Origin: Candidatus Binatia bacterium
GTDB taxonomy: Bacteria > Desulfobacterota > Binatia > Bin18
DNA length: 64,000 nt
Assembly (NCBI GenBank): GCA_963666315.2
Contig: CAXXHG010000018.1
Coordinates: 110,936-174,935 of the forward strand
Direction: 5' to 3'
A model generated the notes under the pieces. The model saw only the letters and a program-made list of their open reading frames with translations, ran no database searches and was not told the origin of the DNA. Below, piece after piece: positions 57,782-61,770 of this stretch. The position numbers and the translations under genes are program-made. Numbering within the stretch: position 1 is the stretch's first letter; each line of letters opens with the position of its first letter.

Positions 57782-57880
57782 GTTGGTTACTATACAATGG
57801 AAGTCTCTCCTTGTCAGCTCAGACAGATTAGACAGATCCGACTTGTACCCTGCGCGCAGATCAGGAAGAATACACACATA

Positions 57881-58867
57881 ATGAGAAACAACAGGCGGCA
57901 GCGGGGAAACGGAAACAGATCCCAGGACGGACGACGGCGTCAAGCTCGTAGTGGACAACAGCAGCGCGGCAGACGGACGGGGACACCCCCACCGTCAGCC
58001 ACGCTGCAAGAATTTCAGGCTCGGGTGCCGATTGCACCCATCCGCAAAATTCCCCTGGTCGGTCCGGATGCACCACTCACAATTCGCATCCTTGATGTGT
58101 TCTGCCCCATCGGCTTTGGACAACGGGCGATTATCCTGGCTCCGCCTAAGACCGGCAAGACAACGTTCTTAAAAGACCTGTGTGTTGCCATTGCGGCAGG
58201 GGCGCCAAAGGCTATTTTGTACAGTCTCCTGGTTGACGAACGGCCCGAGGAAGTCACCGACTTTCGTCGTGCCGTCCCAGCAGAGGTGTTTGCTTCCTCC
58301 AATGATCGGCCGCTTGAAGAACATCTGGAAGCAGCCGCCAGCTGCCTGGAACGTGCGGTTGGAGAAGCGCTTGCAGATAAGGACGTCGTCATCGTCCTCG
58401 ACTCGCTCACCCGTCTCGGACGAGCCCACAATCTGAATACGACAACCGGTCACACTATGAGCGGCGGCATTGATGCCGGTGCCCTTGAATTACCCAAACG
58501 ACTGTTTGGGGCGGCCCGACAGCTTGAAGATGGTGGATCACTGACGATCATTGCCACGTGCTTGATCGATACCGGCAGCCGCATGGACGAGGTGATCGCT
58601 CAAGAATTTAAAGGTACGGGCAATATGGAGCTTTTGCTCGAACGGCGTCTGGCCGACCGGCGTCTCTTCCCAGCTATTAATATTGCTGCTTCAGGCACCC
58701 GCAAAGAAGAACAACTGCTGGATCCGGACGCACTCAAAGCGTCACGTCTGTTACGACGCAAAGTCGCCGATATGAATACTGTCGAGGCGACGCAAGCCGT
58801 CCTCAGCGTGTTTGAGAAAATCGAGTCAAACGCCGCGTTGATTGAGCAGCTGGCGAGTGCAGGCTGA
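57881..58867 (+). CDS. rho: Transcription termination factor Rho, short form lacking the N-terminal RNA-binding domain
   Basis: [57 protein letters not shown] and SGTRKEE are all present. Only about 40 Arg/Gln/Gly-rich residues precede the motor. Confidence 0.9.
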
Positions 58868-59475: not shown

Positions 59476-61770
59476 TTATTCCGACGCTTTTACGGCAGTG
59501 AGCGCAGCCTGCCCGCGTCGGGTCAACCACACCGACAGCTGCTCCGTTGCTTCGACCACAAGCAGCTTGCGTTCGATGAATAGATCAATAGCTGTGAGCA
59601 ACTCCTGGTGCGGATACTGTACCAAAAACCGGTGGCCGGGCAACGTGGTGATGTTCGCTGTTGGCCGAGCTCCCATTTCTGTCGTGCCGCGCAGGAAGTG
59701 CGCGACCCCGGCGCGTGCCAGCTCACCGTCCTGGCTTTGGACCACGCGCAAGATGGCCCAGCCTACAGCGGTTGGAATGGGGTCAAAGGGAGATTGGGGG
59801 GTAGGGACTGGGGGTTGGGGATGAGGGGTTGATGACGTGTGTTGTTCCAGCGCTTCTTTGGAGCTTTCGCCTTGCGTCCGACTTTCAACGGGTTCAGTAT
59901 CGTTGGTATTGGCTCCCTGGGCAGTCGTCTGTGCTGACTTTTTCTGCGCTGCTGGTGACGCCAGTACGACAGACGGGTATTGGCCGGGAATCAAACGGAG
60001 CTGGCCAGTCTGAATCAGACGGTCTATTTGTTCAACAATTTGGTCCTGGGTGAGGCGAGTGAGTTTGCCGTAATGGGGGGATTCCTCGAGTCCGAGCTGC
60101 TTCATCTTGCGCGACCGGCTGCCGGCCAACACCTGAGCAATCCCCGAACGTCCCATTTTTCGTTTCTGCAGGTCACGCACGGCTCCAAGAATCACGTCCT
60201 GACTGTCTAAGGCACCGGGGATGCCAGGCCGCAACGTCTGTGAGGTCGTTGTGCCCAGGGTACCCAGGGTACATAGATCACACTGGCCGCAGTTTTTCCC
60301 GACCGGGACGCGTTCGCCAAAGTAACGCAAGATCACCGCACGTCGACACGCCGTCGTCGTCAGGTAGTCGAGCATCTCTCCCAATCGACGATAGTCCGCC
60401 TGTTGGCGCTGCTTGAGAAAAGAAAAGTCGAGCCGTAAGTCTTGGGGGCTTTTGTCCGTCCGCAGCTGAACGGCCTGAGCTTTCGGACCTGTGCGCTCAA
60501 CGTAACCCTTGTCTTGTAACACTGTCAGCGCAACATTGACTTTCTCTTCACTCAACTCGGGCACCCGGCCCGGGATCTCACGTGGTGACAGCCCGGTTCG
60601 CAACAGGCGGTAGATCTCGCGGACCTCACCGCCAGTGGGATAGCGCTGCTGGATAAAGAAACGTTGCAGACCGCTGTCGCGCTTATCATACAGCAGGAGA
60701 CATTGAGCAGATTCCCCATCCCGGCCGGCCCGGCCGGCCTCTTGGTAATAAGCTTCGAGCGAGCCTGGATGTTGATAGTGGATCACGGCCCGCACGTCGG
60801 GTTTATCAATGCCCATACCGAAAGCGACGGTGGCGACAATAATGCGGACTTTTCCTTGCAGGAAGGCTTGCTGATTCGTACGCCGAATATGCGCCCCCAG
60901 GCCGGCATGATACGGCACAGTCTTCACCTCGTGTTGATTGAGGAGAGCGGCCAGCTCTTCCGCATCGCGCTGACGCGCAACATACACAATACAACTCCCG
61001 CTGATGCCCTGCAGCAGGGCGACCAACATCTCGGGTTTGGCCTTGGTGACACATGGCACCACACTAAAGAAGAGATTCGGGCGGTCAAACGAGTTGACAA
61101 GCAGAAACGGATCAACCAGACCGAGTTGGACGGCAATCTCGCGCCGCACGGCCGGGGTGGCGGTTGCGGTCAGAGCCAGGACAACCTTGGGTTGGATCGA
61201 GGCAATAGCACTCCGCAGGCGTAAATAGTCGGGACGAAAGTCATGTCCCCAATGACTCACACAGTGGGCCTCATCGACCACAAACAGACTGACCGCCACG
61301 CGTTTGAGCCGATCAATAAAACCCGGCGCAGCAAAGCGCTCAGGGGCAACGTATAAGAGCTTGAGGCGCTGCTCAGCCAGTTGTTGAAAACGCTGCTCAA
61401 TCTCGGCCCGCGATAGGCTCGAATTCAGTGCCGTCGCATGTAGTATCCCCCGGGCGTGGAGCTGATCGACCTGATCCTGCATCAGAGCGATCAAGGGCGA
61501 GACCACAATAGTTACCCCTTCACGCAGCAACGCCGGGAGTTGATAACACAGGGATTTCCCGCCACCAGTAGGCAGAATGGCAACCGTCGAACGCCCGGCC
61601 AATACAGCTTCAACGATCTTGCGTTGACCTGGACGAAAGTCGTCAAATCCAAAGTGGCGCTGCAGTGCGGCTGCGAGCGTATCTTCCGTCACAGAACGAG
61701 TAGCCAGATCAGAAGGGGCAGCCGGATCAGCACGATCAGAAGGATCAACAAGATCAGAAGGACCAGACAT
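59476..61770 (-). CDS. recQ: RecQ-family DNA helicase with two C-terminal winged-helix (RQC-like) domains
   Basis: PTGGGKSLCYQLP, DEAHC.S.WGHDFRP, TATAT, YHAG, GMGIDK, QEAGRAGRDG and CRR..CGQCD.C. Confidence 0.9.
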   Translation of the reverse strand: MSGPSDLVDPSDRADPAAPSDLATRSVTEDTLAAALQRHFGFDDFRPGQRKIVEAVLAGRSTVAILPTGGGKSLCYQLPALLREGVTIVVSPLIALMQDQVDQLHARGILHATALNSSLSRAEIEQRFQQLAEQRLKLLYVAPERFAAPGFIDRLKRVAVSLFVVDEAHCVSHWGHDFRPDYLRLRSAIASIQPKVVLALTATATPAVRREIAVQLGLVDPFLLVNSFDRPNLFFSVVPCVTKAKPEMLVALLQGISGSCIVYVARQRDAEELAALLNQHEVKTVPYHAGLGAHIRRTNQQAFLQGKVRIIVATVAFGMGIDKPDVRAVIHYQHPGSLEAYYQEAGRAGRDGESAQCLLLYDKRDSGLQRFFIQQRYPTGGEVREIYRLLRTGLSPREIPGRVPELSEEKVNVALTVLQDKGYVERTGPKAQAVQLRTDKSPQDLRLDFSFLKQRQQADYRRLGEMLDYLTTTACRRAVILRYFGERVPVGKNCGQCDLCTLGTLGTTTSQTLRPGIPGALDSQDVILGAVRDLQKRKMGRSGIAQVLAGSRSRKMKQLGLEESPHYGKLTRLTQDQIVEQIDRLIQTGQLRLIPGQYPSVVLASPAAQKKSAQTTAQGANTNDTEPVESRTQGESSKEALEQHTSSTPHPQPPVPTPQSPFDPIPTAVGWAILRVVQSQDGELARAGVAHFLRGTTEMGARPTANITTLPGHRFLVQYPHQELLTAIDLFIERKLLVVEATEQLSVWLTRRGQAALTAVKASE

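Follow-up and report, generated by a model that had tools for sequence, protein, structure and literature searches.

The gene at 57881..58867 of the window, by which we mean the whole stretch of Candidatus Binatia DNA analysed here (64,000 nucleotides), encodes a short Rho paralog, P0001, in which a Rho motor is preceded by an arginine-rich tail in place of the N-terminal domain (NTD) with its OB fold. Sequence comparisons indicate that this motor-only Rho belongs to an old, selected and monophyletic family with a conserved basic tail, and canonical Rho was encoded in all 17 of the holder genomes examined. Our preferred reading, to which we assign a probability of about 0.45, is that P0001 could be an autonomous ring RNA translocase that captures RNA via polycationic tails and works beside canonical Rho.

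Gene and domain architecture

The short rho gene, the gap before it and the parts of its product are as follows (nucleotide positions are those of the window and residues are those of P0001).

57782..57880, no strand: intergenic region of 99 bp between a hydantoinase-type gene and the short rho (direct reading)
57863-57868: RBS-like AGGAAG, 12 nt ahead of the short rho ATG
57881..58867, plus strand: short Rho paralog P0001, 328 aa and a stop (stop-free translation)
57881..57991, plus strand: basic low-complexity tail, residues 1-37, rich in R, Q, G and N, with 12 Arg (composition, pLDDT)
57992..58081, plus strand: connector, residues 38-67, homologous to the NTD-CTD linker of canonical Rho
58082..58693, plus strand: RecA-type ATPase domain PF00006 (ATP-synt_ab), residues 68-271 (Pfam, E 7.8e-19)
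58694..58864, plus strand: C-terminal helical part of the Rho CTD, residues 272-328 (1pv4 alignment, structure model)

PF00006 is the single Pfam domain of P0001; neither Rho_N (PF07498) nor Rho_RNA_bind (PF07497) gave a Pfam match even at E<=1, which is the outcome that the initial annotation had anticipated for such a scan. The alignment with E. coli Rho (1pv4) begins at residue 152 of 1pv4, and only 37 disordered residues lie ahead of the connector. The connector carries a predicted helix at residues 40-47, aligns to M. tuberculosis Rho from residue 328 onward and to the 8hsj chain from 140 onward, and is conserved in the family of P0001, referred to below as clade A.

Assignment of the remaining protein to Rho was supported by family models and by structure. 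The NCBIfam Rho model NF006886 matched P0001 with 354.7 bits (E 5.9e-106, cut-off 315) over model positions 130-412 of 413 only, aligned with residues 42-323, and the Rho motor occupies residues ~42-324. The score against TIGR00767, 340.5 bits, was below the cut-off of 509.45, and NF041509 (paralog_Rho2, a short form) gave 305.9 bits, or 306.7 when the genome was searched, against a cut-off of 628, with only positions 67-360 of 360 covered. P0001 fell outside the FliI, T3SS and F1 ATPase families, for which the best score was 79.5 bits against cut-offs of 380-750. Identity to solved Rho CTDs was 46-48%, and an AlphaFold2 model of P0001, built from a 22-sequence alignment (mean pLDDT 87.1), was superposed by Foldseek on Rho chains with an rmsd of 1.3-1.8 A over ~283 columns.

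The possibility that an N-terminal domain had been overlooked can be addressed from the surroundings of the gene. The initial annotation had stated that only 99 bp lie between the ATG and a divergent gene, and this is the exact length of the gap, 57782-57880, that ends at the minus-strand start (57781) of the hydantoinase/oxoprolinase-type gene. It had also held that no domain could be hidden by a frameshift, and a search of the whole 4.99-Mb assembly agrees, as its sole Rho_RNA_bind match is the canonical rho on another contig; by the same result we rejected a split Rho with its OB domain encoded elsewhere. Conservation in L006 and L007, the two closest loci, extends over the last ~60 nt, with AGGAAG and the ATG among them, and the open frames of orthologs are of variable length 5' of the P0001 start Met. 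The sole promoter-like site in 57782..57880 points toward the minus-strand gene, and the 99-bp gap yielded none that would serve the short rho. Both flanks of the short rho are on the minus strand, with the hydantoinase-type gene upstream and a RidA-like gene, followed by recQ, downstream.

Motor motifs

The residue names and loop limits of the E. coli motor follow the Rho literature, in which residues 179-185 form Walker A, D265 Walker B, E211 the catalytic Glu, R212 the Arg valve, R366 the Arg finger, 279-290 the Q-loop and 322-326 the R-loop. The register was obtained by phmmer against 1pv4, with an offset of +91 for query positions through residue 186 and +92 afterwards, and places the motifs of P0001 as follows.

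58142..58162, plus strand: Walker A (P-loop) PPKTGKT, residues 88-94 (E. coli 179-185)
58238..58243, plus strand: catalytic Glu E120 and Arg valve R121 (E. coli E211, R212)
Walker B residue D174 (E. coli D265)
58439..58474, plus strand: Q-loop segment, residues 187-198 (E. coli 279-290)
58568..58582, plus strand: R-loop DTGSR, residues 230-234 (E. coli 322-326)
58700..58702, plus strand: Arg finger R274 (E. coli R366)

The 1pv4 register bears out the earlier statement that Walker A and B, the catalytic Glu and the Arg finger are intact, and E120 and R121 were invariant across all 67 tabulated rows. The two RNA-contacting loops, which had been described as intact as well, call for some correction. 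The Q-loop segment is present, but the position of E. coli K283 is occupied by His (His191) in P0001 and in its 97%-identical relative L006; among 46 aligned family members the residue there is Arg in 34 and Lys in nine. An R-loop is likewise present at residues 230-234, but the EFKGTGN to which the name had been given is a different segment (residues 242-248, E. coli 334-340). Catalytic and channel-loop positions were all conserved in the 13 clade A rows and in the 18 rows of clade B, the other OB-less proteins of the phylogeny below. By these alignments P0001 retains predicted motifs both for central-channel RNA binding (Q- and R-loops) and for ATP hydrolysis.

The arginine-rich tail

Translation of 57881..58867 gives, at the N-terminus of P0001, the very peptide that the initial annotation had quoted as an Arg-rich sequence standing where the NTD should be, and composition and the Pfam result agree with that description. 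The 44 residues that precede the motor carry a net charge of +10. The tail is predicted to be disordered because pLDDT in the AlphaFold2 model is below 50 at residues 1-4 and 6-32.

Similar tails were found in most of the clade of OB-less proteins. In 29 of the 31 clade members the stretch preceding the CTD measures 23-66 aa and has a net charge of +4 to +10; Arg is its dominant residue, accompanied by Gln, Asn, Gly, Pro and His. The other two have four residues in one case and 15 residues with a net charge of 0 in the other, and their starts may have been mis-called. Within the genus the tail retains a median identity of 50%, a basic composition and a central RGR(R/Q)NG stretch; across orthologs no conserved tail motif beyond composition was found. 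Since the tail is common to the clade and its composition is kept, a basic disordered tail is a feature of the family and not an oddity of P0001.

The initial annotation had likened this peptide to the arginine-rich motifs of lambda N and Rev. Lambda N and HIV Rev also have short Arg-rich peptides, but their likeness to the P0001 tail is compositional only, and the sequence of the tail is not conserved between orthologs. It is the charge of the tail that suggests it may bind RNA.

Close homologs and selection

Canonical rho was found in the same assembly (G000:C36:14051-15286; 698.6 bits, model positions 2-413), as expected if P0001 is the second Rho that the initial annotation took it for. 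The product is E. coli-like (611 bits to 1pv4) and is 48% identical to P0001 over the CTD (47.5%). The 74 closest database proteins are 64-96% identical to P0001 and 260-331 aa long, and carry PF00006 without either N-terminal Rho domain; PF07497 was present in only four among the 120 proteins listed. One genome per species was scanned, and close relatives (70-97% identity) turned up at 30 loci, of which 21 are titled Candidatus Binatia and several lie on closed or complete chromosomes; the others are titled as Methylomirabilota, Deltaproteobacteria, Thermodesulfobacteriota, Proteobacteria or "uncultured Enterobacteriaceae" MAGs. The 5' junction of the short rho recurs in independent assemblies and closed chromosomes.

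Rates of substitution were compared by the method of Nei and Gojobori for the short and canonical genes of the same 12 genomes, and 22 of the 66 pairs were usable for both genes because synonymous sites were saturated in most pairs. Over these 22 pairs dN/dS was 0.065 (range 0.046-0.085) for the short core and 0.28 for the short tail, which is thus fast-evolving, and it was 0.027 for the canonical CTD and 0.067 for the canonical NTD. Non-synonymous divergence across all 66 pairs was 1.65 times as high in the short core as in the canonical CTD. Purifying selection on the motor core is therefore strong.

These results bear on the simplest alternative, that the gene is a decaying or mis-assembled remnant of rho without function. 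The whole NTD is missing, and a published survey, in the group it sets apart as a Rho-like ATPase domain, calls this class non-functional (Moreira et al., 2024; NAR 52:8979, PMC11347177). Against such a remnant stand an intact frame in which every motif is present, the low dN/dS of the core, 74 closest homologs of the same architecture, the repeated recovery of the same junction in independent assemblies and closed chromosomes, and the position of the gene within an old monophyletic clade, and we regard a remnant as very improbable. Full-length close homologs combined with relaxed selection or a misassembly, the findings by which the initial annotation thought its own interpretation could be overturned, were looked for here and did not appear, because close homologs share the architecture and the core is under purifying selection.

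Phylogeny

A tree of 75 proteins was inferred from 283 columns of the CTD only (IQ-TREE, LG+C20, quick mode, with SH-aLRT as the only support measure), and because of this restriction the columns of the trait itself play no part in it. Clade A, the family of the window's protein with 13 rows, was monophyletic (SH-aLRT 100) on a long stem of 0.55. Together with 18 other OB-less proteins of ~300-347 aa it formed a multi-phylum clade of 31 rows, all of them OB-less (SH-aLRT 97). The resident canonical rho of G000, the genome of the window, and that of G162 were placed outside this OB-less clade, and a tree held to unite clade A and the resident canonical gene was rejected by an AU test (delta lnL 49.6, p 0.0065), with the group named after the tree had been seen.

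Eight other proteins without the OB domain by Pfam (P0186, P0188, P0131, P0261, P0157, P0229, P0138 and P0264) fell outside the clade, which suggests that OB loss may have happened more than once. Two of the eight are placed inside canonical groups and could be fragments.

Clade-specific substitutions were noted as well, at E. coli positions 137, 140, 192, 205, 232, 234, 255, 274, 306 and 332. Cys at E. coli position 192, Tyr at 205 and His at 274 are universal, or almost so, among the 31 OB-less rows and rare in the 36 OB-containing rows, and E255 of E. coli is Glu in 36 of 36 OB-containing rows versus none of the 31 OB-less rows. The residue at 255 is Leu in at least 12 of the 13 rows of clade A and mainly Asn, Gly or Val in clade B. 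Taken at the level of sequence, P0001 appears to be an old accessory paralog of Rho and not a recent truncation.

Distribution and coexistence with canonical rho

Every one of the 11 genomes sampled from the window's genus, counting G000, has the short copy, and so does the one genome sampled from a second genus of the family. No short copy was found in the three genomes from a third genus of that family or in the other families sampled, an absence that implies the gene is dispensable. These counts refer to a class sample of 121 genomes, in which the unpublished genome G233 was counted only as a genome with a canonical match. All 12 holders in this sample also carry a second match of canonical length, and the genes extracted for these matches have complete NTDs.

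In a wider sample of 151 genomes from the phylum, the OB-less copy was found in three genomes (G000, G110 and G108), and the second Rho copies of two others (G140 and G034) keep the OB region. Five distant holders (L021, L026, L029, L031 and L032) were inspected individually and all five also have a canonical rho, complete in three of them and cut by contig ends in two. Both genes thus occurred in 17 of the 17 holder genomes examined, and the presence of canonical rho in every one of them suggests an accessory role for the short protein, beside the resident Rho.

Predicted self-assembly and possible mixed rings

Three copies of residues 38-328 were modelled together with a 46-row alignment and gave an ipSAE of 0.47; the highest value among three controls was 0.00. 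The runs agreed in at least 92% of contacts, with partner pLDDT of at least 86. The ipSAE mark that this result passes had been calibrated on 30 solved homo-pairs, of which 20 reached it, and on 23 proteins solved as single chains, of which one did; the present job departs from that calibration in having three copies and its own alignment. The pass may reflect likeness only, since Rho hexamers have already been solved.

Residues 46 and 49-53 of the connector lie in the predicted subunit interface. Of 34 interface positions, 23 (68%) are identical to those of the resident canonical Rho, as compared with 47.5% over the CTD, and the 11 that differ include connector positions 46, 49, 51 and 52, as well as 141 and 143 on the facing side.

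This interface is pertinent to a second alternative, in which P0001 would be a modulator that co-assembles with canonical Rho, leaves each hexamer with fewer primary RNA sites and so tunes or poisons termination. The similarity of the predicted interface and the invariable presence of canonical rho in the holders are consistent with it, and hetero-hexamers have been raised, in the survey's treatment of shorter second Rho copies, as a possibility (PMC11347177). The two paralogs, however, are just 48% identical and have long been separate, several of the 11 differing interface positions are fixed in clade A, as would fit a self-specific interface, and a pure poison subunit needs no conserved basic tail. 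We therefore consider a modulator unlikely.

Genomic context

Comparison of 30 loci (L006-L035) revealed no partner in the neighborhood of the short rho. Upstream genes differ among them, as eight loci have the hydantoinase-type gene and many of the rest an operon for a Pot-type ABC transporter, and the sole recurring neighbor is the convergent RidA-like gene, among close kin. A dedicated NusG paralog was also sought in the genome, a 92% complete assembly, and rejected, the sole PF02357 match being one NusG-family gene.

Both observations concern a third alternative, that P0001 has no RNA-capture site of its own and would be placed on RNA by NusG or another adaptor, with the tail serving in localisation or condensates. 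The KOW domain of NusG binds to the CTD of Rho and promotes closure of the ring, even when the RNA contains no C, as stated in a paper that cites work from 2018 (PMC7819879), and the CTD that carries the NusG site is retained in P0001. The lack of a conserved neighbor across the 30 loci, apart from the RidA-like gene, and of a second NusG-family gene in the assembly speak against it, and of the alternatives in which the protein is functional we find this one the harder to credit, a little below mixed rings.

Other associations were considered separately. A mobile origin was rejected after a tblastn search of 72,556 plasmids, in which matches came from 59 records, all below 60% identity; the 15 plasmid matches listed all start at residue 43-45, and 10 of the 15 are annotated as rho or Rho. 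A role in a defence system was also rejected, as PADLOC gave one weak match (mad8, E 0.0043, 14.6 bits) that we attribute to P-loop noise.

Expression

Metatranscriptome contigs lying inside the ORF were recovered from three of four libraries (three studies), with lengths of 206, 151 and 155 nt and 0, 2 and 2 differences, respectively. Most of the ORF was without cover in the four runs, and many 35-nt matches at 58563-58597 belong to the rho of other organisms. These contigs give a weak hint that the short rho is transcribed, weak because DNA carry-over is possible and the contigs give neither strand nor transcript ends.

Proposed function

For a second Rho of this kind the initial annotation had suggested a different RNA specificity, loading by a partner or a modulating part in mixed hexamers, each of which may hold. 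Returning to the preferred reading, an autonomous tail-loaded translocase might operate in the following way. The CTDs of P0001 might assemble into a Rho-like ring, to which the three-copy models lend weak support. On its entry face this ring would bear six disordered, polycationic tails that capture RNA electrostatically, with little sequence preference, and stand in for the YC-specific crown of OB folds. The motor would then translocate 5'->3' along RNAs onto which canonical Rho is poorly loaded, with transcription termination, the removal of R-loops or RNPs, or some other process as candidate outputs. Such a protein would act beside the resident canonical Rho and not in its place.

A broader version would extend the proposal to the OB-less clade as a whole, as self-sufficient tail-loaded translocases without a sequence-specific primary site, which would provide a second, Rut-independent pathway of termination or RNA clearance for C-poor or structured transcripts beyond the reach of canonical Rho. 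We regard this version as conceivable and rather doubtful, ahead of the mixed-ring and adaptor alternatives and behind the proposal for P0001 itself.

The primary RNA-binding site of Rho is held to select its targets, and a conserved family that has traded this site for a basic tail of ~40 residues is in effect a natural experiment on whether the motor of Rho is able to load and work in its absence. Given that canonical Rho is always found alongside, these bacteria may possess two motors for termination or RNA clearance, each following substrate rules of its own. The question can be tested in a cultured holder, Colwellia psychrerythraea 34H.

Comparison with known systems

Structures of canonical Rho are available as PDB 1PV4, 3ICE and 5JJI. 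Like canonical Rho, P0001 has the CTD with Walker A and B, catalytic Glu, Arg valve, Arg finger and Q- and R-loops. Unlike canonical Rho, it is without the ~130-aa NTD, a helix bundle plus OB fold that forms the primary RNA-binding site, and its clade has Cys in place of Ala at E. coli position 192, Tyr in place of Ile or Met at 205 and His in place of Tyr or Phe at 274, and has lost E255.

Shorter forms of Rho have been described before. The "Type 4" or "Group B" proteins, names that go with PMC11347177 and D'Heygere (2013), keep the OB fold, as do those of NF041509, and are missing only the helix bundle. P0001 resembles them, and the proteins modelled by NF041509, in being a second, shorter Rho beside a full-length one; it differs from Type 4 and Group B, whose OB domain lies within the first ~25 residues and which have no Rho_N, in having no OB domain.

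Disordered basic segments on Rho are also known. A disordered basic insertion (NID) in M. tuberculosis Rho is reported to be needed for productive RNA recruitment, with 1759 putative Rut sites for the wild type versus 47 without the insertion in the figures given there (PMC13650167), and this requirement provides a precedent for the recruitment of substrates by a basic tail. The P0001 tail is similar to the NID and to the Bacteroides insertion region in that each is an Arg/Gly/Gln/Asn-rich segment, predicted to be disordered, on a Rho motor. Those insertions, however, sit in an OB-containing NTD, whereas the P0001 tail, of ~37 aa, stands alone.

The closest match was found in the survey by Moreira et al. 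of 2730 genomes/species, in which a "functional Rho" is defined by the joint presence of RNA-binding and ATPase domains (PMC11347177). Its supplement sets apart 28 sequences, each from a different organism, as a "Rho-like ATPase domain" group, described there, with no experiments in that account, as "not functional Rho factors" yet as well conserved and having the essential residues. The organisms on that list of 28 are cultured Pseudomonadota, Verrucomicrobiota and Chloroflexota, and Binatia are not mentioned on it. Among them are Colwellia psychrerythraea 34H, with a 419-aa Type 1 Rho and a 314-aa protein whose ATPase domain spans 33-313, and Bradymonas sediminis, with a 415-aa Rho and a 282-aa motor-only protein. 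Our literature search found no experiment on a motor-only or NTD-less Rho, and a review (PMC12360218) has no passage on Rho paralogs or truncated Rho.

As in the "Rho-like ATPase domain" class, P0001 consists of the ATPase/BCM-pocket domain only and occurs beside a functional Rho, and going by the survey's supplement the motor-only class is already in print, with P0001 as an addition from Candidatus Binatia. What the present analysis contributes to this class, matched here by architecture, is a basic tail found across the clade, monophyly and data on selection. Selection, phylogeny and co-occurrence together argue against the "non-functional" label that the published catalogue (PMC11347177) attaches to these proteins.

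Sequence features of P0001 and its neighborhood

Residue 191 of the short Rho paralog P0001, which lies in the Q-loop (window 58439-58474) and corresponds to E. coli K283, is a histidine instead of a basic residue. Histidine at this position was found only in P0001 and in the copy at L006, one of the two closest loci, while the next relative, at L007, and 34 of the 46 family members have arginine. A short direct repeat, AGACAGAT, lies within 57820-57840, between the divergent starts of P0001 and the hydantoinase-type gene, and could be an operator serving the divergent promoters. At L006 and L007 the spacing of the two copies is larger by about 19 nt.

57821-57828, first copy of AGACAGAT
57830-57837, second copy of AGACAGAT
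59476-61770, minus strand, RecQ-type helicase ORF, 764 aa (translation only)

As judged from its translation, the RecQ-type ORF carries a long C-terminal extension past the usual helicase core.

Distribution of Rho in related genomes

Five genomes of the class to which the window's genome belongs, four from family f84 (G169, G187, G238, G262) and one from family f3 (G076), with completeness of 95-99%, gave no Rho match to the P0001 query at E<=1e-20, and the NCBIfam Rho model NF006886 returned only 25-33-bit matches to ORFs of ATP-synthase-subunit length. It may be that rho is wholly absent from some lineages of this class.

Second Rho copies of another kind occurred in two genomes of the phylum sample:

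G140:C179:292-1365, locus L065, second Rho, 'Type 4' kind
G034:C158:7473-8537, locus L064, second Rho, 'Type 4' kind

The G034 copy contains one in-frame TGA. Matched model positions in these copies run from 48 or 50 to 411, indicating that the OB region is kept and the helix bundle is absent; unlike P0001, they are of the 'Type 4' kind, the short Rho class of Moreira et al. (2024).
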